Shown in pieces: positions 8,392-60,824 of a DNA stretch of 64,000 nt (its first letter is position 1; every line of letters begins with the position of its first letter). Source of the stretch: an uncultured virus (IMG/VR IMGVR_UViG_3300037249_000775) (lineage: Duplodnaviria; Heunggongvirae; Uroviricota; Caudoviricetes); the IMG/VR virus record IMGVR_UViG_3300037249_000775; one strand, written 5' to 3'. The notes beneath the pieces were generated by a model. It was not told the DNA's origin and did not search any database. It saw only the letters and a list, made by a program, of their open reading frames with translations. Both the position numbers and the translations under genes were made by a program.

Positions 8392-8424
8392 AAATAAGTG
8401 AGTGTAAATTACACTCACTTATTT
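8392..8424 (-). terminator. Intrinsic terminator
   Basis: AAATAAGTGAGTGT-AAATT-ACACTCACTTATTT hairpin with A-run on its left, downstream of 8443..8730. Confidence 0.75.
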
Positions 8425-8442
8425 CTCTAAAGAGGTTGTTGA

Positions 8443-8730
8443 TTACTTTTTCTTATTATGGAAACGCTCATAGAGCTTTCCATAAAAGAAGTAATTGACA
8501 ACGACACTTACAATACTTGAAAGCATAGCAAACGCTCCAAGCAAATAAGCGAATGCCTCAGGCTCGCTGAAAATCTCCACAACAGTTTCTTTAACTGTTG
8601 TAAGAATCGATTCGTCCGAATCTGATTCAACCTCAAATCCAGCTTCTCTAAGCTTCTCCACTGAGTCTTTGAGAATGTGAGCTTCATTGCCGTCAACTTT
8701 TACATTAACTATATTTTTCATACTTGTCAC
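8443..8730 (-). CDS. Small early membrane protein
   Basis: ORF with C-terminal hydrophobic helix; own early promoter, RBS and terminator; start may be ATG 8721. Confidence 0.75.
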   Translation of the reverse strand: MTSMKNIVNVKVDGNEAHILKDSVEKLREAGFEVESDSDESILTTVKETVVEIFSEPEAFAYLLGAFAMLSSIVSVVVNYFFYGKLYERFHNKKK

Positions 8731-8812
8731 CTTTTGACCTTTCCTCCCTTAAGGGAATATAAAAATATTTAATATGTACGTGTATAAATACTATTAGTAT
8801 TTATACACAAAA

Positions 8813-8847
8813 ATAATATATATATATAAATAATATTAAAATACGGA
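8813..8847 (-). promoter_or_regulatory. Early promoter (TCCGTA box + TATATTAT)
   Basis: Minus strand TCCGTATTTT...TATATTATTTTTGTGTA, as at 10444, 21555, 32198, 39113. Confidence 0.75.
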
Positions 8848-8856
8848 TATTTTTTA

Positions 8857-10160: not shown

Positions 10161-10391
10161 TTATTCTTCGTTTTTCTTAGTAAAGAAGCCAAGATTCTTT
10201 ACCATAAATGCTGTAGTTACAGTAGCACTTGTTAAAGCTGCTGCTGTTGCCGCAACAATAACTTTCTTTGAATCAGTCGCTTTTGCGACTAAATTTACAA
10301 CTACAGATGCTGTAATAAGATTTGTTGCTGCCAATGAAGCTGTAGCGGCTACTTCTGCTGTTGTCTCACTAAATCTGTAATTCTTTTTCAT
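10161..10391 (-). CDS. Small early Ala/Thr-rich membrane protein
   Basis: Two hydrophobic segments; early promoter, RBS AGAAAGAGG, terminator at ~10121-10162. Confidence 0.75.
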   Translation of the reverse strand: MKKNYRFSETTAEVAATASLAATNLITASVVVNLVAKATDSKKVIVAATAAALTSATVTTAFMVKNLGFFTKKNEE

Positions 10392-10443
10392 AATGTTACC
10401 TCTTTCTACCTATGTATATAGGATTTATTATTAATACGCAAAA

Positions 10444-10476
10444 ATAATATATCAATTTATTATTTAAAAATACGGA
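10444..10476 (-). promoter_or_regulatory. Early promoter (TCCGTA box + TATATTAT)
   Basis: Minus strand TCCGTATTTTT...GATATATTATTTTTGCGTA; TCCGTA box lies in the arm of the RNAP-gene terminator hairpin (10469-10505). Confidence 0.75.
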
Positions 10477-10507
10477 TAAAGGATATAATATCCTTTATCC
10501 GTATTAA

Positions 10508-13500
10508 TTAACTTTCATAAATTTCTCTAAGCCTATTCTTTAATTCAATAATGCATTTATTTCCAAGTGATGTTAAGAATATACTCGGTACCATACGAGA
10601 AAGAATAGAGTTGGATGCAATTATTGTATCTACAACTTCATCAGGATGATACTCACTATATGGTTCATAACCTTCTGGAATAACTTCACCAATCGTATTT
10701 TTTAATGCTGTAAAGTTTGCAATTTTTGAACCCGTCTCCAATGGTTCTGTATGTTTAATATAGAAATTAATCAATACACCATCGTCTACATTCTTACCTT
10801 TAATAACACCATATTTATTTGGCTCAATTTGATGTGTCGGCTCTTTACACAATATACCACATTTAACAACACTGTTTTTGCTCTCAGGATCATACTTTTC
10901 AAGAATAGCTTTTTTCTTATTATATTTTTTATAATAATCTGATACAACCTTTTTTAATGACGGCGACATTTCTTCCAATGGAACTGTTGCATATATTTCT
11001 ATCTGTTCAATTACACCAGAATACTTAGACTTAATTGTATTTTTAGATTCTTCAGTAATTTGCTTTTTCATATCGTCATCACCGATATTAGCAAGCAAAA
11101 CATTCAATTCATTATCATCATATGATGTATCAAATTGAATAAGTGGTTCACCTACCATAATTTCATTACCCTTTTTAACCATATGAGTAATATTAGAGTT
11201 TTTACCAATTACAGCCTGAACCATGAAACACATTTCAGTTGCAGCAGCATCAGCTAATCTCTGACTAATCATTGTAGCATCTTCATATGTATTATAAGTT
11301 GACATAATTGCTACTTTAGCTAATGTACCCATATTCATTCTTGCATTATTAAACTTATCATTAGTAAAGAAATCTTTATGATAAGCTAAAACATCATCGG
11401 CTTTAAATTTATCTCCAACTTCCAAATCAGTAATAAGCTTATTCGAAAGGAAAAATCCGCCACCACCGTTTTTAACAATAAATTCAGATAAATTAACTGC
11501 CTTAGTTTTACCTGATTTATATTTAACTATCATAATACCAGTTTCTTCATCTTTTTCAACTACAGTTCCATCTTCATCAGCATTGACAACGAAGTCTGAA
11601 GATAATTTAAATCTTACAACTTCTTCCATACCATTTGAAATTAATACAGGAGATGAATCTTTAACTGGAACAACATGTCTTGATTGTTTAATAGCATGAC
11701 CTAAACGTGTAGGATCATCGTATGAACCAGACATAGGCATCATTAATTCAGCAGGTGAGAATACATTAACATCAGTTAATTCATCTTCTTTACCTTGCTT
11801 TATATCAACGTATCCTCTTATAGAAGTAATTGCAGGTTCGGTACTAAGAGTTTTCAGTACACCAACATTACCATCAGGAGATGACGATGGAGCTATAATA
11901 CCAACCATTGATTGGTCAAACACTCTCTTTTCAGGCGTATATGCTCTATCCAAGTTAGAACCTCTAAATCCTTTTGAGGAAATAGAATGCATCATTTCCA
12001 TCTCAAGAGCAGGATTAAGTGTCGAATAATCCTCAACTGTTTTCAATGCCAATAAGTTTTTAATAACTATATCTTGTGGAATAGAATATTTCTTTGCACC
12101 ATTAGAGTTTCTATAATTAACATAGTTCTTTGCTAATGCTTCATAAAGAATAGCAGGTACAATCTCATTGGATCTAACACGTGATAATCTCTGATTTGTC
12201 TCGGGAATAAATTGTGAGTCAGCAAGAAGACTAACTGCATAAATCATCAATTCAACAATTTCAGTTGGTAAATTAATATCAGCTAAAATTTCTTTAGTAA
12301 TAGGGTCTATTGTAAATTCATAGAAGTTGTTAAGGGCATTAATGATCGTGGCTTTACCATATACTTTCATAAAGTAGTCTAAATATGGTTGTACGTCATC
12401 CATATCAGAAAGTTTATATTTCTCAAGAGGTAATAATCTAATACCATTGATTAGAATGGAACTTCCAACATTACTATCATCGTATATAAACCAACAATCC
12501 GAAAATCTTAAATAATTTTCATTGAATTTCACATCTTTGGGTCTACCATCACTTAATCTATAATTAATATTCATTTTTTTAAGTACTCGTGAAAAACCTT
12601 CCCAGAAACAAAGTAAAGCCATAACTGCAATATCCTGACTCATGACTTTAACTTTAGTATACATCAATCGTTTTGGAATTGGAATAGATGCTAATTTATC
12701 CGACATAGTAGAATCACTATTATCTAAAATAATATCAACAATACTTCTACCATTGGACGTTTGATTATTTATATTAACAAAAATTGGTTTACTATTTTCA
12801 ATACCAATAAACATATTATTTTCAGGTACTTTAATATTATTTTCATCTAAATATTTTTTGGCTTCATCCTGGTTGAAATAAATTATACAAGTTCCGTTTT
12901 TAGATTTAAATCTAATTAATAACTTTGATAATTCATCGTACTCAATAGTTGTAAGATATTTCTCATTACCATGATACGAATTACCAAATTTAAAATATTT
13001 CTTAAATTCATCTGATTCTTTTAATAATTTTTTCATACGTTCTACAGATGAAACTGATTTAGTATCAACACGCCTTATGGTCATCTTATTATAATTGGTA
13101 ACAATCTGTACAGTATCTTCACTTGTTTTAATAACAGGAAAAAAGAAGTTTTGTTTTTTAATAACTTTCTTATTACCGCCAATATAAATAAATCTATCAT
13201 CTAAGAATTTAGGTATATCTACTTTTACAGTATGTCTTTGTCTATTAGCATCTTCAAGATAAATAGTATATGTTTCTTTATAGTTAAGCTCGTCAGATGT
13301 ATCTTCAACTTTAATGTCTCTAACATACATAGGGATAGACTTATCATTTAAAGATAAAATGGCATTAGTTATATCATGACTTAAAACTTTTTCATTATAA
13401 GTTTTATCAAAATTCTGGAAAGTCATCTTTGCCATATTCTTATTAGGAGTTCTAACTTTATTAGATACATCCTTTGTTGGAACAGATATATGATTAGCCT

Positions 13501-19329: not shown

Positions 19330-19446
19330 AAAATTAATAGATAAATATTTTAAAATATTTATCTATTAATTTGATTTAAAGAAATACGGCGAAGCCGTAA
19401 TATAGTAAGTACCACTATTATATTATATTAGTAATTAGAAATAATT
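19330..19446 (-). ncRNA. Candidate late small RNA
   Basis: AACA-aaaagg-TA (19446-19457, minus) to terminator hairpin ~19332-19372; contains the GC hairpin TACGGC-TTC-GCCGTA; no ORF start inside. Confidence 0.4.
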
Positions 19447-19497
19447 ACCTTTTTGTTCTTGAAAAAATAGAAAATAATTCAGTATAAACAATAATGT

Positions 19498-21502: not shown

Positions 21503-21554
21503 AAGATAATATTAATAAGAGAACTGTAAGATTATTTCTTACAGTTCTCCTTTA

Positions 21555-21587
21555 TCCGTATTTTTAATATATATATTGATATATTAT
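21555..21587 (+). promoter_or_regulatory. Early promoter (TCCGTA box + TATATTAT)
   Basis: TCCGTATTTTTAATATATATATTGATATATTATTTTT, identical at 32198 and 39113. Confidence 0.8.
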
Positions 21588-21605
21588 TTTTTTGTAAATA
21601 TTAAA

Positions 21606-21678
21606 GGGAGTTATGCTTTATCCCGAGTTTAAATCAAAGCAATGTCAACCCCCGGACGGTAACAGTGGGGAGAAAGGA
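21606..21678 (+). ncRNA. Tandem-pseudoknot 5' leader, copy A
   Basis: GGGA/TCCC + TGCTTT/AAAGCA; TGTC/GACG + CCCC/GGGG; then AGAAAGGA RBS. Confidence 0.7.
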
Positions 21679-21683
21679 CATTT

Positions 21684-22118
21684 ATGTCCAAAGCAATAAT
21701 CAATCTTCCATCAATTGACATGAGCACAGAGTTTACTGAAAACGCTTCTATTTGTGATTCTCTTGCAGTAATTGAAGAGAATCTGAAAACGGCATTGGAA
21801 TTAAATTACATCGCCGCAAAAAAATATTGTGGTAAATCAGTTGACGCGGTAGTTTCCATCTTTAAATATATAAAGGAAGCAACGGGTGATGGTTTTCATA
21901 GTGATATGAATATCATGATGTATAGAGACGGACTCTACAAGTTTCTTTCCGAGGTGTTTCAGAAAGAAACACTCGGTAATGAGCTTGAGGATATTAATGA
22001 TGAACTTGTAGAGTTCATCATCAATTATCGTTCGCAATATACATTTAATGAAGTTGGTGAAACTCTTAAGCATTATATGCTTATTGAAAAAGACGTTGAT
22101 GAGGATGAATATTTTTAA
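21684..22118 (+). CDS. Early accessory hypothetical protein
   Basis: Stand-alone cassette: early promoter, structured leader, RBS, terminator ~22153-22190. Confidence 0.8.
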   Translation: MSKAIINLPSIDMSTEFTENASICDSLAVIEENLKTALELNYIAAKKYCGKSVDAVVSIFKYIKEATGDGFHSDMNIMMYRDGLYKFLSEVFQKETLGNELEDINDELVEFIINYRSQYTFNEVGETLKHYMLIEKDVDEDEYF

Positions 22119-22255
22119 TTTCATCATCTTCATCCTTTAATTAAAAAAATGGAGCTAAGGATTCTGGTGATTCTTAGCTTTATTTTTTTTATTTTTTTAG
22201 GTGCTTATATATTATTTTTTAGAAATTAAAATACATTTAAAAAATCTTATAAAGG

Positions 22256-24703: not shown

Positions 24704-24751
24704 AAATAGATTCTTTTGACAATGGTTTAATACTAAAAGGAAGTGATTAAT

Positions 24752-25435
24752 ATGTCAAAAGAATCTAGTTTTATTCGTACTATAAAAACAGTTATTCCTG
24801 AAGAAATGGAATATTCTGTTTTTATTAATACTGATAAGGATAGAGTAAAATTTATTAAAAGATGCGAAAAAGTTATTCGTTCATCAAATGAATATAGAGA
24901 TTATATTGCATTTTTAAAAGAGAATGTAGATATGGATAAATGTGCATTTTATCAAAATGTATCATCAGAAAATTCAAAAAGAGTAAAAATTGAAATACAT
25001 CACGAACCTTTTACTCTTTTTGATATTGTCTCTGTTGTAGTAGATAGATTTATAGACCAAGGATATCCATTAAATGATTTACTTATAGCAGATGAAGTCA
25101 TGGAACTCCATTATGCTAATATGGTTGGTTTAATACCGTTATCAAAAACCATTCATCAGATAGTTCATAATTCTACTAAAATTACTATACCATTAAATAT
25201 GGTTTATGGTGATTATACTAGTTTTCTTACATCTGAAAAATACGAACCATATGTTGATGAATTATTTGAAAAATTGGAAACTAAAATCAATGAAACAAAA
25301 AATCTAACGGAATCTAATTTTGATGATTTGAAGAAAGAATTTACATATTTAGAAATGAAAGATGTTCCTGTTGTAAATAAACAACTTACATCAAAAGAAT
25401 TAGAAGAAGTTATGAATTTACAAAAATCAGCATAA
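24752..25435 (+). CDS. HNH/His-Me-finger-like protein
   Basis: IEIHH...LSKTIHQIVHN; paralog of 34164..34793. Confidence 0.6.
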   Translation: MSKESSFIRTIKTVIPEEMEYSVFINTDKDRVKFIKRCEKVIRSSNEYRDYIAFLKENVDMDKCAFYQNVSSENSKRVKIEIHHEPFTLFDIVSVVVDRFIDQGYPLNDLLIADEVMELHYANMVGLIPLSKTIHQIVHNSTKITIPLNMVYGDYTSFLTSEKYEPYVDELFEKLETKINETKNLTESNFDDLKKEFTYLEMKDVPVVNKQLTSKELEEVMNLQKSA

Positions 25436-26405: not shown

Positions 26406-27890
26406 ATGTTAGAAATTGATATTGGATACGTTGGACGTGAACGAACCGATGAAGAACGTGAAGAAATGCGAGAAGAATTAGAATATGAATCGCATGAATC
26501 CAACCACGTAAAGAAAGATAAACTTGGAGAATTTGTTGAGGAGTTTCAGAAACGTCAGAAGCAGTACGACAATTATAGAGCTAAGCGAAATAAAAAGTTT
26601 CCTTGGGAAGAATTATATTCATCAGTTGTAAATGATTTTAACGATGATTATAATTTGAGTAATGAGGAAAAAGCTAAACGAAATCGTTACTATTCTTATC
26701 AGAAAGAATTTATTAAAGGGGGATATAAGTGTCGTGATGTAATATCATATGTTAAGAAAGCAAGAATATCTATTAAATGGCTTTATGAAATTTATAATAA
26801 TATTCCAAGAATTATGGTAAACGAATATACTATGGATTTTATAGAATTTCTTGAAAAAGCTAAATCTGATGCTGATAAAATCAAAGAGTATAATAAGAAA
26901 CTCGAAGATGGAAAGCATGTAAAGTTTCCTGATTTATCTCTTAATATAAATTTGGGTGCTTGGAGTTATCCTAAATATAAACCTAGAAAGAATGCTCTTC
27001 GTTATGATGAAGATTATCTTGAAGAATTTATATTAACTGATAGAGACCCATCTGAATTAATTCCTGAGAATAATGAACCTGAAGAAATAGAGATTACAAA
27101 AGATAATCTCGACGAAGTAGGAGAGAAATTATTTGGTAAAGAAAGATGGGAAGAATTACAGAAATCGCTGCCAGAAGATGATATTTATGCTCGTCAGTAT
27201 GATCCTGATGAAGATGATATCGACGAGCATCCCACATTAGCTATAGTAGGAACTGAAGATGATGCTAAAGCATTATTGAAGTTTGATGACTTAAAAGGTG
27301 TTCTTGGTGATATTGCTCGTAAAGAACGTGGACGTAGTAGACTAAGTAGATGTATTACAGATATTCATCAAGATACTGAAATGACATATTTCGATGACCA
27401 TAAATTCTCAAAGAAATATCAGAAGAAGAATGATAGATTTGAAATTCCATCATTTAAAGGTGATATTAATGATGATAAAGCTTTTGAAAAGTTTATGAAT
27501 CAGATTGAAAATATCGAAGACCAAACCTATTATGAAACTGCTAAAGGTAAGATGATGACAGGTGAAGAAATCGATATGTTAGAACTTAAAGAATTTCTTT
27601 CTGAGAATGGTTGGAAGATAAATGCTTTAAGAGGTCTTGGTGGTAAAAAAGATGAAAAGAAAAAGAAGAAAAAGAAAACAGACTATGACAAAGTTCGTGA
27701 AGTCAAACGTAAGTTGACTAAAGGTAAAATTAAGAAAAAGGTTGGTGTTAATACTAAAAAGAAAAAGAAGAAAAAGGAAAATAAAGCCAAGAAAGAACAG
27801 AATAATGATTTAGAAACTGCTATTTTAAGTGCTGCAGGTAATGAGCAATATAGTAGTTTCGATGAATGGAAAGCTTCATTAGAGGATTAA
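26406..27890 (+). CDS. Hypothetical charged protein
   Basis: True start probably ATG 26406 (AGAAAGGGG RBS, TATATTAT at 26351); poly-Lys C-terminus. Confidence 0.75.
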   Translation: MLEIDIGYVGRERTDEEREEMREELEYESHESNHVKKDKLGEFVEEFQKRQKQYDNYRAKRNKKFPWEELYSSVVNDFNDDYNLSNEEKAKRNRYYSYQKEFIKGGYKCRDVISYVKKARISIKWLYEIYNNIPRIMVNEYTMDFIEFLEKAKSDADKIKEYNKKLEDGKHVKFPDLSLNINLGAWSYPKYKPRKNALRYDEDYLEEFILTDRDPSELIPENNEPEEIEITKDNLDEVGEKLFGKERWEELQKSLPEDDIYARQYDPDEDDIDEHPTLAIVGTEDDAKALLKFDDLKGVLGDIARKERGRSRLSRCITDIHQDTEMTYFDDHKFSKKYQKKNDRFEIPSFKGDINDDKAFEKFMNQIENIEDQTYYETAKGKMMTGEEIDMLELKEFLSENGWKINALRGLGGKKDEKKKKKKKTDYDKVREVKRKLTKGKIKKKVGVNTKKKKKKKENKAKKEQNNDLETAILSAAGNEQYSSFDEWKASLED

Positions 27891-27902
27891 GGAGTATATG
27901 CT

Positions 27903-28790
27903 ATGTTAAAGACAATCAAATCATTATTAATGGAGTTCATTCCATATGAACTCTATTCAGATCTTAACACCGTTGTTGATATGCATGTTGACAACAGTGT
28001 TAAAGAAATAGGTATAAAATATTTATTAACTAAGTATAATATACCTTACACATCATTAGGTTCTGGTACGAATAGATTGGGAATACTTATTGGTGGCTAT
28101 GCATTTAAATTTGCATATGATAAAGCTGGGTGTATAGATAACAGGAGAGAGTTTAAATACTCAAAGCTATTGTATCCATATGCTATCAAAGTCTATGAGT
28201 GTTTTCCCAATGGTTTGATTTCAGTAAGTGAATATATTGAAGTATTTACAGAAGAAGATTTCTGGACTTATAGAGAGCCAATGAAAAATATTTTGACTGA
28301 ATTATCATCGAAATATTTAATCGGCGACGTCGGTATCATTAAAAAGAATCTTACTAACTGGGGAGTTAGACATTCAGAATACGGTGACCAAATTTGTATT
28401 TTGGACTTTGCATATATTTATGATACATCTTTTGGTACATTCGTATGCAGTTGTGATAATATTACAATGTTGGAATATGATAAAACCTTTTCAAAATTTA
28501 TATGTCCACGATGTAGTAAAGTACACACGTTTGAAGATTTACGTTCACGTATTACTAGGAAACTTGAAAGTGATGAAATTGGTGATATAAGGGATCTATC
28601 ATATAACGTAACTTCAGCTATGCAGGACGTAGAATATGTTTCTCAATATTCTGATATCGATGATGACGATGATGATATCATTGAAAATATTGAAAAGATA
28701 AAGGAATATGAGGAATATGAAAAAGAGATGGAAGAACAAAAAGATTTGTTTGACTATCATCCTATGTATGAAAATGAGGATGTAGAATGA
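27903..28790 (+). CDS. Protein kinase-like protein with C-terminal Zn ribbon
   Basis: LGSGTNR (Gly loop), AFK, E helix, GDV..NWG, ILDFA; CSC...CPRC. Confidence 0.7.
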   Translation: MLKTIKSLLMEFIPYELYSDLNTVVDMHVDNSVKEIGIKYLLTKYNIPYTSLGSGTNRLGILIGGYAFKFAYDKAGCIDNRREFKYSKLLYPYAIKVYECFPNGLISVSEYIEVFTEEDFWTYREPMKNILTELSSKYLIGDVGIIKKNLTNWGVRHSEYGDQICILDFAYIYDTSFGTFVCSCDNITMLEYDKTFSKFICPRCSKVHTFEDLRSRITRKLESDEIGDIRDLSYNVTSAMQDVEYVSQYSDIDDDDDDIIENIEKIKEYEEYEKEMEEQKDLFDYHPMYENEDVE

Positions 28791-30860: not shown

Positions 30861-31619
30861 ATGTTTAATATATATGAAAAAGATATATTGATGAATGATA
30901 ATATCTTGTATCTTTTTAATAAATCAATATATGAATATGATATGAAAAATGCAGGATATAGTTTATCTAAAGCATATAATCTTTTACCAGAAGAAACATT
31001 GGGTAAATTAGGCAAATATAAAAAAGATAGACGTACTGTTGAAATCGGTAAGCTTCAACGGTCTAATTCAGAGTTTAAAAATAATTTACAGCAAGCGTTT
31101 AAAGATGCACGTAAATTATTTTTTGAAGCGAACGAGTTAGATATTAATGATGTAATATCAATTAAAAAAGATGCAATATTTACAACTAAATATTGTAAAT
31201 ATCAAAATTTTTTAGACTTTATAGAATTTCGACCAAAAAATACTTATTCGTCTTATATTCGATTGAATAAAAAGGTTGAGTTGTACTATTCACCAATTCA
31301 ACTTGATATAAAAGGATTGGGAGATGAAAGTATTGAATATCATAGAGATTATATGATAAAATTTATTAATACTTTCTTTAGTAAGATGGAGACAGATAGT
31401 GAAGTAAATACGCTCCGTTTTCTACGTTCCTTTGTCGATAAATATAAGAATAGAGAGTTAGATATTGAGTATTATAGACGATTTGACCGAGATTCTTATT
31501 TTGATATTGTAGGAGATACTTTACAATATAAAGATTATTGGCAAGAAAATATAGATGATATAGACATAAGTTTTAATTATTTTGAGGTGTTAATGAAATT
31601 AGTAAAGATACCTTTGTGA
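30861..31619 (+). CDS. Small family-B DNA polymerase palm-like protein
   Basis: YEYDMKNAGYS (motif A-like) and SIKKDAIF (motif C-like); GGTGGTG RBS before ATG 30861. Confidence 0.55.
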   Translation: MFNIYEKDILMNDNILYLFNKSIYEYDMKNAGYSLSKAYNLLPEETLGKLGKYKKDRRTVEIGKLQRSNSEFKNNLQQAFKDARKLFFEANELDINDVISIKKDAIFTTKYCKYQNFLDFIEFRPKNTYSSYIRLNKKVELYYSPIQLDIKGLGDESIEYHRDYMIKFINTFFSKMETDSEVNTLRFLRSFVDKYKNRELDIEYYRRFDRDSYFDIVGDTLQYKDYWQENIDDIDISFNYFEVLMKLVKIPL

Positions 31620-31695
31620 TTAACAAAGGTATCTTTACCTGTATTTTTATTTTTTTTATATTTATATATAATTTAAGTATACATATTGAATATCT

Positions 31696-31764
31696 GGAGT
31701 TATGCTTCTCCTACGTCTAATGAAAAAGCGGTGTCATCCCAAGACAGTAACATTGGGAGAAAGG
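31696..31764 (+). ncRNA. Tandem-pseudoknot 5' leader, copy B
   Basis: GGAG/CTCC + TGCTT/AAGCG; TGTC/GACA + TCCCAA/TTGGGA; then GAAAGG RBS. Confidence 0.7.
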
Positions 31765-31770
31765 CTATTT

Positions 31771-32145
31771 ATGGCTAGATATGATAGATACAATAAAATC
31801 GTCAGCATTGTTGATAAGGAGACTGTTATTAATGGTTTCATTTGTAAACCTAATATGATTGTTATTAGTAATGATGAAGGTGGTCTTGCTGTTATTACGC
31901 GGCGAGAAATGAAATTTTTCGACGCAGATGGTTATCCGGAGTTGTATAAGCTATTTGCGTATGAATTAGTACGCACATCATATGGAGATGCATGGTCTAC
32001 TGGTCGTTATTTGAAGATCACAGATCTTCAGTATGGTATAGGAGACCTGACGAAAAGTCTATTTAATGAGATAACATTGGATACGTGGACGTTCGGTGAG
32101 AGAAACCGATGGCGTTCCGTGGCTGGAATAAGTTTCGTGGATTAA
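31771..32145 (+). CDS. Early accessory hypothetical protein
   Basis: True start ATG 31771 after RBS; N-terminal domain shared with 32310..32909. Confidence 0.8.
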   Translation: MARYDRYNKIVSIVDKETVINGFICKPNMIVISNDEGGLAVITRREMKFFDADGYPELYKLFAYELVRTSYGDAWSTGRYLKITDLQYGIGDLTKSLFNEITLDTWTFGERNRWRSVAGISFVD

Positions 32146-32197: not shown

Positions 32198-32302
32198 TCC
32201 GTATTTTTAATATATATATTGATATATTATTTTTGTGTAATTAGGTTATGCTTAATCCAGTAAAAAGCAGAACTATTCTTCTTATGAAGATAGTAGAAAG
32301 GA
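32198..32302 (+). promoter_or_regulatory. Early promoter plus degenerate leader (copy E)
   Basis: TCCGTA/TATATTAT promoter; GTTATGCTT...AAAAAGCA remnant of first pseudoknot; hairpin ACTATTCTTC-TTAT-GAAGATAGT replaces the second, abutting AGAAAGGAG. Confidence 0.65.
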
Positions 32303-32309
32303 GTCAATT

Positions 32310-32909
32310 ATGACTTACACAAATATTATCAACGTAATCGATACAAAGACAATCATTAAGGGTTTCGTTTGTAAACCGGGTATGATTGTCATCGGTGGAG
32401 AAAATATTCCACTGACAATTTGTACTCGTACGTATACCGATTGTGATCATGACAATGAACTATACGCATTGTATGCGTATCAGTTCATTAAGAATGAATG
32501 GAAAGGCGGTTACTTAGATTTCAGTAGAGTGAGTGACAATCTCATTGAAGAGATTGAAAATCTCATTCAAGAAGAAATTAAGAAAGCCGATGATCAAGCT
32601 TTTAAAAAGGTTTGTGATGAGGCTCTTCAATTTGAGGAGGAAATGCTTGTCAGTTGTGATGATGACGAATATTTCAAATTTGTCACAGTTGTAGGTGGCA
32701 ATAAATGTAATAATGGTGGGGAGTACTGGTTCTATGATGAACTGTACCCAACCATTAAGAAGGGAGTGTTTAAACACTTCACAACTACAAGCTGCGATTT
32801 CGATAATTGTGGCTGTGGATTTGAGGGCTATGTAGTCCTCACAAATGAAATTCTTCAGAAACTTATAGTTGCTGAAGAAGAGGTTCTCGAAAGAGGATGC
32901 CTCTATTAA
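32310..32909 (+). CDS. Early accessory hypothetical protein
   Basis: RBS, own promoter and terminator; Cys-containing C-terminal domain. Confidence 0.8.
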   Translation: MTYTNIINVIDTKTIIKGFVCKPGMIVIGGENIPLTICTRTYTDCDHDNELYALYAYQFIKNEWKGGYLDFSRVSDNLIEEIENLIQEEIKKADDQAFKKVCDEALQFEEEMLVSCDDDEYFKFVTVVGGNKCNNGGEYWFYDELYPTIKKGVFKHFTTTSCDFDNCGCGFEGYVVLTNEILQKLIVAEEEVLERGCLY

Positions 32910-34163: not shown

Positions 34164-34793
34164 TTATGAATATAAGTTTTTGTTTAAATCTAATATTCCA
34201 AAATCCGACGAGTCAAACATTAAACTTCTATCGATATATCTATTAAGTTTTTCTTTATATTCATCAGGCATCGTTGGACCATAAATACTTAAGAACTCCG
34301 GTAAATTTCCATACGCTTGATTCATATTAATAAATATATTTCTTTCATGAACTTCTTGATGAATTGTTGTGCTTAACATAACAATTTGTATTCTATTTTT
34401 TTGATGTTCTGTTAAAACCATATCAGCAATTCTCATTGAAGTAATTTTCCATTTTTTTGATATAAAGTATTCTAATACAATTGCACAATAGTCGTATAAA
34501 GTAAATACTGGACCATGATGCATTTCTATATCACAATCAAGGTCATCTATATTTTTTAATACCTGACATCTATTAAGTTTAACTTCTTTTTTTAAATAGT
34601 TTATATATTTAGAATATCTATCATTTTGTCTAACTAATCTTTCACAACCTTTAATAAAAGCTGTATACGAATCTATAGAAGAAAAATAATCCTCATTTTT
34701 AAAAAAAGGAATTTGATAAAATGAAGATTGAGCATCAATTATATTATTATGCTTACTTTTATCATAAATAATATTAGGTAAATTTTTTGGCAT
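34164..34793 (-). CDS. HNH/His-Me-finger-like protein
   Basis: IEMHH...LSTTIHQEVHE; AAGGGGG RBS before ATG 34793; paralog of 24752..25435. Confidence 0.6.
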   Translation of the reverse strand: MPKNLPNIIYDKSKHNNIIDAQSSFYQIPFFKNEDYFSSIDSYTAFIKGCERLVRQNDRYSKYINYLKKEVKLNRCQVLKNIDDLDCDIEMHHGPVFTLYDYCAIVLEYFISKKWKITSMRIADMVLTEHQKNRIQIVMLSTTIHQEVHERNIFINMNQAYGNLPEFLSIYGPTMPDEYKEKLNRYIDRSLMFDSSDFGILDLNKNLYS

Positions 34794-34873
34794 ATAAATC
34801 CCCCTTATCTTAATATTATTGTCTTCATAATAATAAAGAAATTCTAGCACAATATCTTAATTAAATTAATAAG

Positions 34874-39065: not shown

Positions 39066-39112
39066 TAATTAAGAATAGATTAGGAAAATCCTAATCTATT
39101 CTTTTTTATTTA

Positions 39113-39145
39113 TCCGTATTTTTAATATATATATTGATATATTAT
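39113..39145 (+). promoter_or_regulatory. Early promoter (TCCGTA box + TATATTAT)
   Basis: Identical to 21555 and 32198 copies; follows terminator 39071-39107. Confidence 0.8.
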
Positions 39146-39165
39146 TTTTGTGTAATAAAATATCT

Positions 39166-39237
39166 GGAGTTATGCTTCTCCTATGTCTAATTAAAAAGCG
39201 GTGTCATCCCCAAGACGGTAACAATGGGGAGAAAGGA
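39166..39237 (+). ncRNA. Tandem-pseudoknot 5' leader, copy C
   Basis: GGAG/CTCC + TGCTT/AAGCG; TGTC/GACG + TCCCCA/TGGGGA; then GAAAGGA RBS. Confidence 0.7.
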
Positions 39238-39242
39238 CATTT

Positions 39243-39632
39243 ATGTCTAACAGTTATTATTTTATAAATATTACAAATCATCCTGCTGCAAAATGGTCAG
39301 CGGAACAGCTTGATTCCGCTAAGAGATATGGAAATGTCGTGGACATACCGTTTCCACAAATTTCACCAACAGCAACTCAAGATGAGATTAAAAAGATGGC
39401 AAAAAGCCTCGCTGCAGACATTTGCGGCACATATCAGATTGGGGATGGTGCACTGGTGCAGGGTGAAATGACTTTCACTTATGTGCTTGTACATGAGCTG
39501 CAAGCACGTGGAATTGTATGCTTTGCTGCTTGTAGCGAGCGTGTAACTGAAGAGGTTGTTAATCCTGACGGAACGACTACCAAAAGAAGTACATTCAAAT
39601 TCGTGCAGTTTAGGGAGTATCCTACTTTCTAA
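39243..39632 (+). CDS. Csx20-like ring nuclease (candidate type III anti-CRISPR)
   Basis: NHP..W..EQ, LVQGEMTFTY.LV, AACSER..EE...DG...K.S.FKFVQFREY resembles recalled Csx20-family consensus (LIQGDF..TY..V...ATT.R...E...DG...K.S.FKHVRFR.Y). Confidence 0.7.
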   Translation: MSNSYYFINITNHPAAKWSAEQLDSAKRYGNVVDIPFPQISPTATQDEIKKMAKSLAADICGTYQIGDGALVQGEMTFTYVLVHELQARGIVCFAACSERVTEEVVNPDGTTTKRSTFKFVQFREYPTF

Positions 39633-39754
39633 TCTGTACATAAAAAAGAGAGATGTTAAAGGAGGTGATTCATAAACCTCTCTTTTTTTTTGATTAATTA
39701 ATTATCATACAGATTTATAAGGGTTAAATAAGAAGAGAGAAAGGAGATGTTAAT

Positions 39755-50470: not shown

Positions 50471-50552
50471 TAATTAATGCAGATAAAGAATATATTCTTT
50501 ATCTGCATTTTTAATAAATTTATATATATATTATTTTAGTGTAAATATTAAA

Positions 50553-50624
50553 GGGAGTTATGCTTTATCCCGAGTTTAAATCAAAGCATTGTCATCCCAA
50601 GACAGTAACAGTGGGAGAAAGGAG
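50553..50624 (+). ncRNA. Tandem-pseudoknot 5' leader, copy D
   Basis: GGGA/TCCC + TGCTTT/AAAGCA; TGTC/GACA + TCCCA/TGGGA; then GAAAGGAG RBS; TATATTAT at 50527. Confidence 0.7.
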
Positions 50625-50628
50625 CCTT

Positions 50629-51174
50629 ATGGCTAACGTACATTATAAAGGAATTCTTGGAGAATTTGATTACAACGATAGTGAGTTTAAAATAACATAT
50701 GCAACCGATCCATACACTAAAGATGTAATTCGTTATATAGGAGATTCACCTAATCCTGTTATTCCTGAAGGGATTCGACGTTGTGATAGACTATTTGTAA
50801 ATTGTACCCTTATTGAAGTTGCTCCGGTTATTCCGGAAAGCGTACGATATTGTAATAGGATGTTTGCAAACTGCACGAATCTTAGAACTGTGTATAATCT
50901 TCCGAAGAAATTATTTGAATGTCGTGGAATGTTTGAAAATTGTACATCTCTTGAAACATCGCCACAGCTCGGATGTATAAGAGATTGTAGTTACATGTTC
51001 AATGGGTGTAGTTCTCTTAAAATTGCACCAGAAATCCCAAACAATGCAAATGATTGTAGAGGGATGTTCAAGAACTGTGTCAATATTAATAATGCTCCAA
51101 AGATTCCAAAATATGCGTCTTATGGAGATATTTTTTACGGCACAAAGTTCTATGGAACATGTGTTAGAAAATAA
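50629..51174 (+). CDS. Early BspA/DUF285-like leucine-rich repeat protein
   Basis: Repeats C..MF.NC.SL..AP.IP; true start ATG 50629 after RBS. Confidence 0.8.
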   Translation: MANVHYKGILGEFDYNDSEFKITYATDPYTKDVIRYIGDSPNPVIPEGIRRCDRLFVNCTLIEVAPVIPESVRYCNRMFANCTNLRTVYNLPKKLFECRGMFENCTSLETSPQLGCIRDCSYMFNGCSSLKIAPEIPNNANDCRGMFKNCVNINNAPKIPKYASYGDIFYGTKFYGTCVRK

Positions 51175-51391
51175 ATTATTATCTACAATAATAGTATTGA
51201 TACAGATATGTTTAAGAATTGTACATCCCTTAAAAACCGACCAATATTGATGATTATAAAACAATCATCAATATAACCAACACAATTAAAGAATAAGCGT
51301 GTGATAATATTATCGCACGCTTATTTTTTTATTTTTCCCTTAAAAAACAAATAGTTAATATATGACTTTAAAATAAAGGAGGAATATATAA

Positions 51392-57852: not shown

Positions 57853-58686
57853 ATGAAGTACGATAGAAAAACAGAAAATAAATCATTTATTGATATGTGG
57901 CATCATCTTCAGCGTTATAATATTGAAAATAATATTTTTATGCTTGGAACTAGAGATAGTATGTTATTAGAATTTTCTATGGATAAATGGAATTCTTTTC
58001 CTCGTGCCACTGATGGTGATTATAAAGTTCTTGAGGGTTTTAGATATAGACTTATTGATGAAATTAGAGAAAATATATGGTTTTACTTTAGAGAAATTGT
58101 ATTTGTACCTGATAAAGAAAATCCTGGTAAGTTTAAACACTTTAATTTAACTCCACAAACAATGATGATGATTTATTTATACATTAATAATAGTTCATAC
58201 ATCACAACAGAAATAAATGATGATATTTTAATGACTCAATATTTTTTGTGGGCATATAATAGACATTTTAAAAATAATGATATGATTATTACTAATAGTG
58301 TAAGTAACACAAATAATATTATCAAAGATATTGATTGCTCAATATTAAATTCAAAAACTCCAGTTCCATTAGGAACTAATGAAATGATAAGTGATAGTTT
58401 TAGACGTTGTATTTTTATTAATGAAAAAACTTTTACTGATTCTTTTGATTTATTCACATACGTAAATAAAGAATATAAAAAATTTATTAGTATTAATTAT
58501 TGGATGGATAAAAATAAAGTATTATTTACATTAGATAATGGAAGTATTAATTTATATAATAGAGTAGTTCAATTAAATAAAGAATATAAATTATATCTTT
58601 TAGGAAATAACGATAATAGTGAACTTGACAAAGCAGGAGTCCTTCTTTACGATAAAGATAAACTAAAAGATATATATTTAATTTAA
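57853..58686 (+). CDS. Degenerate paralog of the terminase N-terminal region
   Basis: NKSFIDM..HL....I.N..FML and NIWFYFREIVFVPD align to terminase NTTFLQV..DL...GIKN.FFML and NPWYYLREISRIPD; no Walker A. Confidence 0.65.
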   Translation: MKYDRKTENKSFIDMWHHLQRYNIENNIFMLGTRDSMLLEFSMDKWNSFPRATDGDYKVLEGFRYRLIDEIRENIWFYFREIVFVPDKENPGKFKHFNLTPQTMMMIYLYINNSSYITTEINDDILMTQYFLWAYNRHFKNNDMIITNSVSNTNNIIKDIDCSILNSKTPVPLGTNEMISDSFRRCIFINEKTFTDSFDLFTYVNKEYKKFISINYWMDKNKVLFTLDNGSINLYNRVVQLNKEYKLYLLGNNDNSELDKAGVLLYDKDKLKDIYLI

Positions 58687-58697
58687 GAGGTGATATA

Positions 58698-60824
58698 ATG
58701 AAAGCACGACTTGCTAGAGTAGGAAATAATTTATATGACCTAGGAACTAGTAATACAACATTCTTACAAGTAGCGGAAGATTTAAAAACTTTAGGAATAA
58801 AAAACTGGTTTTTTATGCTTCAATTGTATGATCCAACATTGGTTACTGTAGACCCATTTGCAGTTGATCCTAAAACAAAACACACATCATTAACACAAGA
58901 CCAGATTGCACGTATAGTGAATGAGTGTGTTAGAAATCCATGGTATTATTTACGTGAAATATCAAGAATACCTGACCAGGGTGGTACAGCAGTTCCATAT
59001 AAAGCTAATAGAGGAAATATTGCACAAGCTTACTGTATTTTACGTGGATTAGATTCATGGCTAGAACTTGTTAGACAGAAAGGTAAAACACAATCAGCTC
59101 TTGCTATACAAGCTTGGGCTTATAATTTTGGTACAACAAATTCTGAATTTATTTTTGTGAATAAAGATGGTGATAATGCTAAAACTAATTTAAGACGTTT
59201 AACTGACCAAATTAATTTATTACCTGAATATTTACAATTTAAATCTGTTGTAGATGAAGAGGGTGTACGAACCAAAGCAAGAAATAATGCTACAATGATT
59301 AGACACCCGATTAATAATAATTCAATTATTACTAAACCTAAAGCAACATCATATGATAAGGCGTTGTCATTAGCTAGAGGTCTTACAGCACCTATTTTAC
59401 ATTTTGATGAGCCTGAATTTACCGAGCATATTGGAACGATTGTAGCAAACTCGGTATCTACATATGAACAAGCTGCATCAAATGCTAAAAAGAATAATGC
59501 TATGTATGCAAGAATATTTACATGTACACCCGGTGATCAAGATACAAAATCAGCACAGGAAGCTCAAAAAATATTAGACCGCACATGTCCATGGACAGAA
59601 CGTATTTATGATTGGACAGATGAACAAATAGAGAATTATATAGCATCACAAGGTAAAGAATGTAATAGAATATTTTATATTAAATATTATTATTATCAAA
59701 TTGGTTTAACACAAGAATGGCTACAAGAGATTAGTGCTAAAATTGGTGACCCATTAACAGTAAGAAGAGAAATACTTTTACAACGATTACATGGTTCATC
59801 ATTATCTCCGTTTGACCAAGAAGATATTGAATATATAGTTGAAACAGAACATAAACCTATTGATGAACTATGGTTATTAGATTATTTTAAATTTGATATT
59901 TATCAGCCATTAAATAAATATACAGCATATATTATTGGAGTTGACTGTTCAACAGGTACTAATGGTGATAATAATGCTATAACTATTTTAGACCCATATA
60001 CAGTAGAACCTGTCGCTGAGTTTGAATGTTCATTCATAGGAGAAACTAAATTCTGCAAATTATTAATTGAATTAATTTGTAAGCATTTACCTAAATCAGT
60101 TTTATGTATTGAACGTAATAGTGTGGGCGATGCAATTATTGATTTCTTATTAAATTCTTCTATTAGGTCTAATCTTTATTTTGATAAGGCAAAAGATTTA
60201 CAGGAAGAAAAAATGAAACAAAATGAAACGATAGAATCTATATTAAAAAAGCAAGCTCAAGTAAAAACATATTATGGTGTTTATACAAGTGGTAATTCTA
60301 GAGAAACTATGATGAGTATATTAGCTAGACATGTAAATGAATATAAAGAAAAATTTATTACACATAATATTATTAGAGATTTATCAAGACTAAAAAGAAC
60401 TGGTTCAGGTAAAGTTCAAGCTATTGGTGATGATCACGATGACTCTATAATGTCGTATTTAATAGCACTATATGTTTTATATCATGGCAATAATTTAATT
60501 TCATTTGGTATAATTAGAGGATTGCGTAATGAAGAAGTAATAGAAAAAAAACATAAAACTGCTGATGAAATTGATCCATCATTAGTATCTCAAGAATTGA
60601 TAGATAGTGTTAAAAAACAAGAGGCATTAGAACGACAAAGAACTTATGATGATATTATGCGTGAAGCAATAACTAATAGTCAAAAGAAAAGTTATAGCAT
60701 GTATCAATCTGGTATGATATCTAATAATATTTTTGGAAATACTCCTGAAGCAAAAATTATTAATGATATAGATAATAATGGTAGTATAGATTTAAATTTC
60801 TTTAATGAGTTAAATGGATTTTAA
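58698..60824 (+). CDS. Terminase large subunit
   Basis: Walker A RQKGKT, Walker B LHFDE, TCTPG coupling motif, nuclease GVDCSTG, IERNSVG, HDDSIMS. Confidence 0.9.
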   Translation: MKARLARVGNNLYDLGTSNTTFLQVAEDLKTLGIKNWFFMLQLYDPTLVTVDPFAVDPKTKHTSLTQDQIARIVNECVRNPWYYLREISRIPDQGGTAVPYKANRGNIAQAYCILRGLDSWLELVRQKGKTQSALAIQAWAYNFGTTNSEFIFVNKDGDNAKTNLRRLTDQINLLPEYLQFKSVVDEEGVRTKARNNATMIRHPINNNSIITKPKATSYDKALSLARGLTAPILHFDEPEFTEHIGTIVANSVSTYEQAASNAKKNNAMYARIFTCTPGDQDTKSAQEAQKILDRTCPWTERIYDWTDEQIENYIASQGKECNRIFYIKYYYYQIGLTQEWLQEISAKIGDPLTVRREILLQRLHGSSLSPFDQEDIEYIVETEHKPIDELWLLDYFKFDIYQPLNKYTAYIIGVDCSTGTNGDNNAITILDPYTVEPVAEFECSFIGETKFCKLLIELICKHLPKSVLCIERNSVGDAIIDFLLNSSIRSNLYFDKAKDLQEEKMKQNETIESILKKQAQVKTYYGVYTSGNSRETMMSILARHVNEYKEKFITHNIIRDLSRLKRTGSGKVQAIGDDHDDSIMSYLIALYVLYHGNNLISFGIIRGLRNEEVIEKKHKTADEIDPSLVSQELIDSVKKQEALERQRTYDDIMREAITNSQKKSYSMYQSGMISNNIFGNTPEAKIINDIDNNGSIDLNFFNELNGF

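Follow-up and report, generated by a model that had tools for sequence, protein, structure and literature searches.

A short non-coding leader at positions 31,691–31,777 of a 64,000-nucleotide DNA stretch from an uncultured Caudoviricetes virus (the window) raises the question of how the region in front of a small gene came to be assembled from parts that recur elsewhere in the same genome. In the sequence-only reading, this leader was one of four copies (A–D), whose first half (PK1) has two alleles, alpha and beta, and whose second half (PK2/RBS) has two alleles, gamma and delta, shuffled in all four combinations. It was proposed that recombination at a shared TGTCA junction exchanges promoter-side modules with gene-side modules, and that the leaders may act as exchange points for a mobile accessory-gene cassette system. 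We thus asked whether the leaders are mosaics, what is exchanged, and whether a dedicated system is needed for the exchange.

The gene content of the window bears on the identity of the phage. PHROGs matches included an RNA polymerase beta subunit, a PhuZ-type tubulin and topoisomerase II subunits, and genes for a dCTP deaminase, a holin, a major head protein, a terminase and a tail sheath were also found. The 1436-aa ORF, which matched phrog_3148 at E 3e-158, is the single RNA polymerase subunit gene inside the window, and its nearest proteins by tblastn were those of Listeria phage LPJP1, Bacillus phage vB_BsuM-Goe21, PBS1 and AR9, at 29–30% identity over at least 91% of the length. By these sequence comparisons, we take the window to be a portion of an AR9/PBS1-like jumbo phage of ruminant gut metagenomes, with a probable Firmicute host. 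Near-identical DNA was detected in 20 of 24 public runs among those listed (18 studies), and at least half of the sampled words were found in 14 runs among those listed; the runs with phage DNA were mostly bovine or goat gut metagenomes, with metatranscriptome libraries among them. The blastn searches gave no nucleotide match to the leader in 50,697 cultured phage records, and no match to an 8-kb stretch of the window among cultured phages.

The leader under study belongs to a small single-gene unit, and the units with a full leader share one layout, consisting of a terminator, a promoter, the leader, an ORF of 124–181 aa and a terminator, in which each promoter adjoins the terminator of the preceding gene. 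Putative terminator hairpins adjoin the promoters at 21517–21551, 31602–31638, 39071–39103 and 50476–50509, and in unit F (by eye). The units, with unit B given part by part, are as follows:

8393–8853, minus strand: unit G, with a promoter of the leader-unit family (8853–8806), a different long leader, a 95-aa gene (8730..8443), and a hairpin with a T-run near 8420–8393
10161–10510, minus strand: unit F, with a hairpin, a promoter of the leader-unit family (10482–10437), a short leader lacking the structured type, and a 76-aa gene (10391..10161)
21517–22189, plus strand: unit A, with a terminator (21517–21551), promoter (21549–21593), predicted start (21594), alpha + gamma1 leader (to 21683), gene (21684–22118, 144 aa) and terminator (22143–22189)
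31602–31638, plus strand: terminator before unit B, ending the upstream operon; 16-bp stem and a T-run that overlaps the unit B promoter
31640–31679, plus strand: predicted early promoter of unit B, with a degenerate AR9-type core TATATAAT, 6 nt and A; predicted start at 31679
31679–31770, plus strand: 5′ UTR of unit B, containing the leader part of the 31,691–31,777 stretch; ribosome site AAAGG at 31760–31764
31771–32145, plus strand: cargo gene B, 124 aa
32157–32236, plus strand: terminator of unit B (hairpin and T-run, by eye) fused to the promoter of unit E; predicted start at 32237
32237–32909, plus strand: unit E, with a first-half-only leader (TTATGCTT ... AAAAGCA) without the second hairpin, and a 199-aa gene (ATG at 32310)
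39071–39692, plus strand: unit C, with a terminator (39071–39103), promoter (39109–39151), predicted start (39152), beta + gamma2 leader (to 39242), gene (39243–39632, 129 aa, PF27247, MJ1673 family) and a terminator-like hairpin with a T-run (about 39646–39692, by eye, uncalled by the terminator scan)
50476–51329, plus strand: unit D, with a terminator-like hairpin (50476–50509, called by the scan on the minus strand only, and on the plus strand by eye), promoter (50496–50540), predicted start (50541), alpha + delta leader (to 50628), gene (50629–51174, 181 aa) and terminator (51288–51329)

The terminator upstream of unit B recurs as an 89% identical copy beside unrelated genes in a related viral contig of 139.5 kb.

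Upstream of the leaders lies a block consisting of CCGTATT, about 20 AT-rich bases, ATATATTAT, six bases and a G, with CCGTATT standing about 38 nt upstream. Over about 45 nt this block shows no difference between A, C and E, and it can be recognised in D, B and two minus-strand sites. The composite CCGTATT-N14-24-TATATTAT-N6-G was found at five places in the window (0.00 expected) and in none of 100 shuffles, whereas the short core alone was not enriched (31 matches versus 26 expected, with 18 of 100 shuffles reaching 31). A promoter profile at E ≤ 0.2 detected 21 sites, 7 of them within the window and the other 14 in the related contig, 11 of the 21 being its own seeds; the promoter of unit B was a weak match (E 0.17), of a subtype that is also present in two relatives. 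The related contig carries at least 12 such promoters at E < 0.01, mostly followed by short unstructured leaders, with three full leaders and two first-half-only ones.

The early promoters and 5′ UTRs of phage AR9 were described by Lavysh et al. 2017 (PMC5312081), where the mapped early consensus for the virion RNA polymerase is given as AAATATATATTAT-(6N)-G, with the G as the start, and where at least 7 of the 39 rows of Table S2 have, by our own reading, CCGTAT near −39. The promoters of the window are alike in their core ATATATTAT, the six bases and the G start, as well as in the CCGTAT near −39 seen in several: A, C, D, E, F and G match the AR9 consensus, and B has the variant TATATAAT-(6N)-A. 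By this analogy, we infer that the promoters are of the AR9 type, that they would be read early by an injected virion RNA polymerase, and that transcription would start at 21594, 31679, 32237, 39152 and 50541. RNA contigs were found to break at the repeats.

The full leader is present in exactly four copies in the window, in front of the genes starting at 21684, 31771, 39243 and 50629:

21596–21686, plus strand: leader copy A, alpha + gamma, gene ATG at 21684
31685–31773, plus strand: leader copy B (the element under study), beta + delta, gene ATG at 31771
39155–39245, plus strand: leader copy C, beta + gamma, gene ATG at 39243
50543–50631, plus strand: leader copy D, alpha + delta, gene ATG at 50629

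All of the allele strings quoted in the sequence-only reading are present as described, and the alignments agree with its four combinations: A and D have the alpha first half, B and C the beta one, while the gamma second half belongs to A and C and the delta one to B and D. Counted from the predicted starts, the leaders of this subset are 88–92 nt long and are built of separable parts, namely a 5′ tail with the first hairpin, a second hairpin with a conserved loop by the ribosome site, and the ribosome site with the first codons. The gamma/delta half is itself not a single module, as its hairpin core can be separated from the ribosome site and first codons. Moreover, gamma is not one allele, since it reads GTCAACCCCCGGACGG in A and GTCATCCCCAAGACGG in C (gamma1 and gamma2), with four differing positions within the hairpin core; the changes that define gamma are one extra C, one extra G and an A to G in GACRG. 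Unit E is a fifth unit, with a promoter as in the leader units and a leader resembling the first half only.

Additional copies were collected outside the window. A covariance model made from nine leader copies gave 12 matches at E ≤ 1 in 207,909 bases, comprising the 4 of the window, 3 in the related viral contig, 3 in metagenome contigs and 2 marginal ones (E 0.24 and 0.29). Pattern scans of viral contigs yielded the one related contig only, with the other inspected loci being chance matches in coding DNA, and at one viral-contig locus (L044) the PK2 pattern was absent when the pattern and the base composition were checked. The scan of genome contigs for the leader pattern gave no locus, and that of metagenomes gave five, two of which were dropped as chance matches in GC-rich contigs.

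We then examined how the differences are distributed along the copies. The four-copy alignment has 23 gap-free informative columns, of which 15 support AD|BC, 6 AC|BD and 2 AB|CD. With these groupings numbered 1 to 3 in that order, the columns run 222-1111111111111-222-3-1-3 along the sequence, with only 5 switches, and as few were obtained in 0.07% of 100,000 permutations (p = 0.0007, four copies). The columns thus form blocks, in which the promoter groups A with C, the first half A with D, and the second half with the ribosome site A with C again; the promoters of A and C are 87% identical to each other and 65–75% identical to those of the other window copies. For the nine full copies (4 from the window, 3 from the related viral contig and 2 complete ones from metagenome contigs), a PHI-like compatibility statistic was 0.231, the mean under permutation being 0.378, and none of 5000 permutations gave so low a value. 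In segment-wise identity matrices, too, the copies grouped differently depending on whether the promoter, the 5′ tail with the first half, the hairpin core, or the ribosome site together with the first codons was compared. At the level of sequence, these results confirm that the four-combination pattern is clustered beyond chance and that the leaders are true patchworks of exchangeable parts; the proposed exchange of modules by recombination is supported by both statistics. The first half of A (or of C) is a swapped patch within a backbone in which A otherwise equals C.

The comparison with close relatives revealed that the genes behind the leaders turn over as well. At the locus downstream of the holin gene, where unit A was compared with metagenome contig L045, the flanking proteins are 93.5% and 100% identical and the leader gene is 39% identical, and L045 has an extra unit of a promoter, an 80-aa ORF and a terminator, flanked by repeats of the promoter and of one terminator. 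At the locus upstream of the tubulin gene (unit C versus contig L049), the leader genes share 60% identity and the tubulins 99.4%, and the leader in L049 has a ribosome site and first codons of another type. The third locus is common to contig L046 and the related viral contig, which are 94.8% identical upstream and have a like promoter and similar terminators with unrelated ORFs of 72 and 73 aa, one with a short leader and the other with a full structured leader; L046 then adds a leucine-rich-repeat gene with a beta + gamma2 leader. The leaders of this leucine-rich-repeat family are alpha + delta in the window, beta + gamma2 in L046 and of a third type in the viral contig. The relatives also add the combination of beta + gamma2 with a D-type ribosome site. 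Furthermore, L046 and L049 share an identical leader run of 73 nt, including private substitutions and the first 10 coding bases, after which unrelated genes follow; such an identical run before unrelated genes reads as a signature of gene conversion (concerted evolution).

In close relatives, the core genes are 93–100% identical, whereas the leader genes are 39–60% identical, are replaced by unrelated ORFs, or are accompanied by an extra unit. The check proposed in the sequence-only reading, different cargo at one locus, thus had a positive outcome among close relatives at the three loci compared, and the relatives exhibit the opposite of what it had named as refuting, that is, fixed cargo with a phylogeny of simple duplication. 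Units without the full leader turn over too. In addition, the contigs of three further DNA runs carry the core genes at about 97–99% identity in long pieces with few differences, and these contigs end at promoters or run into 471–505 unlike letters at genes A and C; altogether, breaks or unlike continuations were seen at units A, C and E. Uncovered parts were excluded as evidence of absence in this comparison, and the bin with gene E had a depth of 1.5–4 in all four runs compared.

The related viral contig matches only 1 of 50 window proteins and is probably another part of a similar genome. Its terminator–promoter composites are 88–94% identical to those of the window, and its terminator–promoter–leader stretches 84–94% identical; since the two sequences may be different parts of similar genomes, the different contexts of these repeats would represent paralogous copies rather than transfer between phages. 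One metagenome holds both L045 and L049, which match the window, and L046, which matches the viral contig.

The observed mosaic structure, unit architecture and gene turnover at conserved loci are, with a probability of about 0.72 in our estimate, explained by the following reading. The leader would be most of the 5′ UTR of small single-gene early units of an AR9/PBS1-like jumbo phage, whose dispersed terminator–promoter–leader repeats recombine or convert. The units, dispersed as direct and inverted repeats of about 100–150 nt, would recombine within the genome and between co-infecting relatives; short conversion patches would shuffle the leader parts and give rise to the four-combination pattern, and exchanges ending in the promoter or terminator repeats would insert, delete or replace whole cargo genes. 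A very unlikely alternative is plain duplication with point mutation and no recombination, in which the second-half states arose in parallel, selected for a stronger hairpin. This would fit the four hairpin-core differences between the gammas of A and C and the few, structurally linked changes that define gamma, and parallel change, comprising the C/G insertion pair and the A-to-G, could explain part of the gamma/delta pattern. However, A and C are alike in the promoter and in the ribosome-site block, which flank a first half that differs at 15 informative sites, the incompatibilities are clustered in both permutation analyses, and the relatives provide both an extra combination and the 73-nt identical run joined to unrelated genes. 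We regard as highly improbable an integron-like site-specific cassette system with TGTCA as the core crossover for a phage recombinase, despite the fact that TGTC is common to all four window copies, and GTC to all nine full copies, where one half gives way to the other. Among the 49 ORFs of the 64-kb window, none matched an integrase or recombinase family, the GTC is equally well explained as one strand of a candidate helix GTC/GAC, and the turnover extends to the units that lack the full leader. Besides, TGTCA is only one of several breakpoints, the others being located at the predicted transcription start, at the border of the hairpin core and the ribosome site, at the first codons and in the terminator–promoter composites, so that its role as the specific junction does not hold.

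The wording of promoter-side and gene-side modules likewise proved too simple, because the promoter, the 5′ tail with the first hairpin, the second hairpin and the ribosome site assort separately. The idea of an exchange system for accessory genes stands in so far as modules have recombined and small accessory-type genes turn over, but not as a dedicated mobile system, for which there was no recombinase hit among the 49 ORFs. Among the 15 joints listed from contigs, with sides of 20–47 letters, there was no convincing one linking leader copies. Ordinary homologous recombination between repeats of about 100–150 nt suffices, and neither a special junction nor a new mobile system is needed. The least probable of the explanations is an assembly artefact, in which metagenome assemblers joined reads of different copies or strains at the repeats. 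Such an artefact would fit the probable origin of the window as a metagenome contig and the fact that exactly these repeats are where contigs from other runs break; on the other hand, the module switches all fall inside a span of about 90 nt, less than the length of a read, and the combinations recur, alpha + gamma1 with a like gene family in the independent contig L045, beta + gamma2 at the tubulin locus in L049, and alpha + delta in the viral contig.

Apart from serving as a recombining repeat, the leader could act as an RNA. The following candidate pairings were located in copy B:

31696–31699 with 31708–31711, plus strand: P1, candidate helix GGAG with CTCC (minimum-energy fold)
31704–31707 with 31726–31729, plus strand: P2, candidate pseudoknot pairing GCTT with AAGC
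31732–31735 with 31743–31746, plus strand: P3, candidate pseudoknot pairing TGTC with GACA
31737–31741 with 31754–31758, plus strand: P4, candidate helix TCCCA with TGGGA (minimum-energy fold)

In minimum-energy folds, the first hairpin (GGGA/TCCC or GGAG/CTCC) was formed in 6 of 6 leaders and the second, CCC(C)/GGG(G) with flanking pairs, in 5 of 6 (all except D), with its loop holding the conserved GACRGTAACA. The consensus fold has 7 pairs, 2 of them with double-sided changes, and includes P1 and P4. The extra C and the extra G of gamma compensate each other, turning CCC/GGG into CCCC/GGGG. The loop of the first hairpin can pair with the downstream AAAGC (P2), and two viral-contig copies have GCAAC/GTTGC in place of this pairing, GCTT(T)/(A)AAGC (shuffle p 0.033 and 0.059), whereas in the beta copies the pairing is at chance level (shuffle p 0.45–0.97). 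In P3, the GTC would pair with the GAC of the second loop over 3–4 bp, with a U-A to U-G as the sole change, and in A and C the TGTC could alternatively pair with GACAT at the ribosome site. Two pseudoknots in the leader are therefore plausible as candidates. The stability of the folds gave no signal relative to shuffles (z-scores of −0.48 to +0.48, six leaders), and the helices are of 3–7 bp with few independent supporting changes. Many alternative 5-bp pairings exist in such AU-rich RNA, so that a best-helix search cannot decide the fold, and the covarying strands fall in different columns of the automatic and the model-fitted alignments. The search of the whole window against Rfam 15 gave no match at the gathering score, and the leader copies remained without a match even when hits up to E ≤ 1 were admitted.

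These observations bear on a further explanation, in which the leader is mainly a regulatory RNA, a switch for a ligand or a protein, whose module variants are selected functional alleles, with recombination as only the means. We consider this unlikely, although less far-fetched than the alternatives above. The conserved GACRGTAACA loop, the P4 helix by the ribosome site with its compensated change, the swapped strands of P2, and the alternative TGTC/GACAT pairing argue for it, and the early UTRs of AR9, as reported in PMC5312081, share a motif of unknown function. Against it stand the lack of Rfam matches at E ≤ 1, folds no stabler than shuffles, the short helices with few independent changes, and the fact that most units with this promoter lack the full leader; moreover, the cargo genes are mutually unrelated, which argues against a metabolite sensor. 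Within the reading based on recombining repeats, the leader RNA may fold and tune the stability or translation of early messages, and it could serve in 5′-end protection, in translation control or as a protein-binding operator. More speculatively, and doubtful in our view, the leader might represent a new modular class of cis-RNA of jumbo-phage early messages, in which a 5′ hairpin or pseudoknot would protect or mark the transcript, the second hairpin with its invariant GACRGUAACA-type loop would be an operator for timed translation, and the parts would be plugged in and spread by recombination among anti-defence and other early genes.

The cargo ORFs are of 57–216 aa, apart from a single ORF of 357 aa, and most bear no relation to one another. 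None of the 7 window cargo proteins had a Pfam match above the cut-off. Cargo B (124 aa) showed no recognisable family in Pfam or PHROGs, and is a paralogue of the unit E gene (38% over 65 aa). Cargo D has BspA-type leucine-rich repeats, below the Pfam cut-off. Cargo C was placed in PF27247 (MJ1673), which is carried by 73 of 73 homologues found, graded from 86% down to 38% identity. Its structure model has a pLDDT of 93.9, and the fold matches, which were weak (best E 1.4e-3, TM about 0.4), were enriched in CARF-domain proteins and ring nucleases; a PDB sequence search gave no match at E ≤ 1, and no link between PF27247 and Crn4 was found when sought. From the model, cargo C is possibly CARF-like, and might be a cyclic-nucleotide ring nuclease or sponge with an anti-defence role.

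The morons of lambdoid phages are independent insertions of a promoter, a gene and a terminator. The present units are similar in being single accessory genes with their own promoter and terminator between core genes, whereas morons are not known to have a shared repeated regulatory module that would give homology for exchange. The candidate topology of the second half of the leader is comparable to the H-type pseudoknot of preQ1-I riboswitches, in that the loop would pair with a 3′ strand by the ribosome site across an A-rich linker; unlike preQ1-I, however, the leader has no Rfam match at E ≤ 1, its cargo is tied to no single pathway, and the pairing is a candidate only.

A closer parallel is provided by the PeSL cassettes described for the T4-type phages RB49/phi1, T4/PST and KVP40/nt-1 (Arbiol et al. 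2010, PMC2839356; Comeau et al. 2014, PMC4122927), for which homologous recombination between the repeats was proposed and, according to these reports, partly shown via mini-circles. As in the PeSL system described there, composite repeats of a terminator and an early promoter, about 100 bp in length, are dispersed in the genome and precede small ORFs of unknown function; the units carry their own promoter, ribosome site and terminator, and the repeats mark the limits of the insertions, deletions and replacements that distinguish close relatives. The extra ORF of L045, flanked by two units in place of the one unit in the window, resembles the reported ORF192 case. The PeSL cassettes described in these reports belong to phages of Gram-negative hosts and have sigma-70-type promoters with the stem-loop inside the promoter. 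The present units, in contrast, have AR9-type promoters preceded by the stem-loop and belong to a jumbo phage that has a probable Firmicute host and multisubunit RNA polymerases of its own; a subset of them also has a long modular leader that is itself mosaic. Also, mini-circles were shown for T4-type phages, whereas the present units are known from contigs alone. With regard to AR9, the phage is alike in its homologous RNA polymerase beta subunit and in having some long early UTRs, and differs in that the polymerase is only 29–30% identical and the leader is without match in cultured phage records. Taken as an analogy, the mechanism is best read as being of the known PeSL type, and the units as the jumbo-phage analogue of the T4-type PeSL cassettes. 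What is new is the AR9-like rumen lineage, the promoter type, and a modular leader, possibly structured, whose own parts have been shuffled.

The rumen commonly harbours jumbo phages that encode their own RNA polymerases, and in the lineage studied here the conserved core is kept while small early genes, a class that often holds anti-defence functions, would be exchanged rapidly, with portable terminator–promoter–leader units as the vehicle of exchange. The PeSL principle, described for T4-like phages that infect Gram-negative hosts, would thereby also hold for an AR9-like lineage whose transcription machinery is different. The analysis also provides a predicted promoter consensus and predicted start sites for an uncultured phage group, and a leader RNA absent from Rfam as a candidate regulatory part.

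The gene for the topoisomerase II A subunit is, as judged from its sequence, split by a group I intron, which was recognised by its match to the Rfam family RF00028:

47738-48164, group I intron (RF00028 match, 40 bits)

This score lies under the gathering score of 50, with an E-value of 1e-8 in a search over 651 bases. Exon 1 extends from the ATG at 47653 to near ...CAAGATGGATTGACT, and exon 2 is the 761-aa ORF listed from 48185. In addition, three stretches of the related viral contig, probably from a similar phage, match the intron region at 87-92% identity.

Two pairs of ORFs in the window each match a common PHROG family:

24743-25435, plus strand, phrog_12252 paralogue 1 (unknown function)
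34164-34850, minus strand, phrog_12252 paralogue 2 (unknown function)
57853-58686, ORF matching phrog_32359 (terminase large subunit family, N-terminal part)
58698-60824, ORF matching phrog_32359 (terminase large subunit family, N-terminal part)

The phrog_12252 paralogues lie on opposite strands with ~9 kb between them. The phrog_32359 ORFs adjoin and both match the same N-terminal part; the terminase gene may have been duplicated, or it may be split or contain an intron. Unit F (gene at 10161-10391, minus strand) and units at ~31.3k, 38.8k and 138.4k of the related contig share the early promoter family and encode small Ala/Thr/Val-rich proteins. These proteins, which are probably membrane-associated, form a paralogous early-gene family, and the unit F protein shares 37% identity with one of those from the related contig.

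The related contig also shares a short stretch with the window:

19395-19481, non-coding stretch of 87 nt between two minus-strand genes

It is 97.7% identical to positions 72929-73015 of that contig, and the genes on either side are not common to both; searches of the stretch turned up neither a tRNA nor a convincing match in Rfam. In a metatranscriptome run, the summed contig depth reached 337 in the bin 27671-28337 versus 1-38 elsewhere. Loose ends flank the positions 27758/27785 on both sides, and a skipped repeat at 27646-27683 is where reads are "cut". The signal around 27646-27785 could come from a short sequence, abundant or widely shared, with which the 540-aa gene ends.

Regarding the leader RNAs, the ~90-nt 5′ UTRs of units A-D, the TGTC that precedes the second hairpin can pair with a complementary GACAT, which follows the ribosome site and lies ahead of the start codon, in copies A (21639-21644 with 21676-21681, 6 pairs) and C (39200-39204 with 39235-39239, 5 pairs). 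This pairing occurs in the minimum-energy folds of A and C and is possibly an alternative, translation-blocking one; B and D lack it. Separately, a contig from the goat-gut run X4, with a loose end at 31693, runs from the early promoter of unit B into another variant of the first half of the leader, in which GGAG ... CTCC is kept and the loop differs (TTTGCACTT; 30 letters visible).

Finally, the gene behind leader C encodes a member of a family annotated as CRISPR-associated:

39243-39632, cargo gene of unit C, PF27247 (MJ1673, "CRISPR-associated") protein

N9, N12, H13, W18, Q22, G74, E75, R100 and R124 are invariant among 35 sequences. A link to Crn4 was sought and none was established; the fold matches, which are weak, fall among CARF domains and ring nucleases. 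The cargo protein may possibly be a viral cyclic-oligoadenylate nuclease or sponge.
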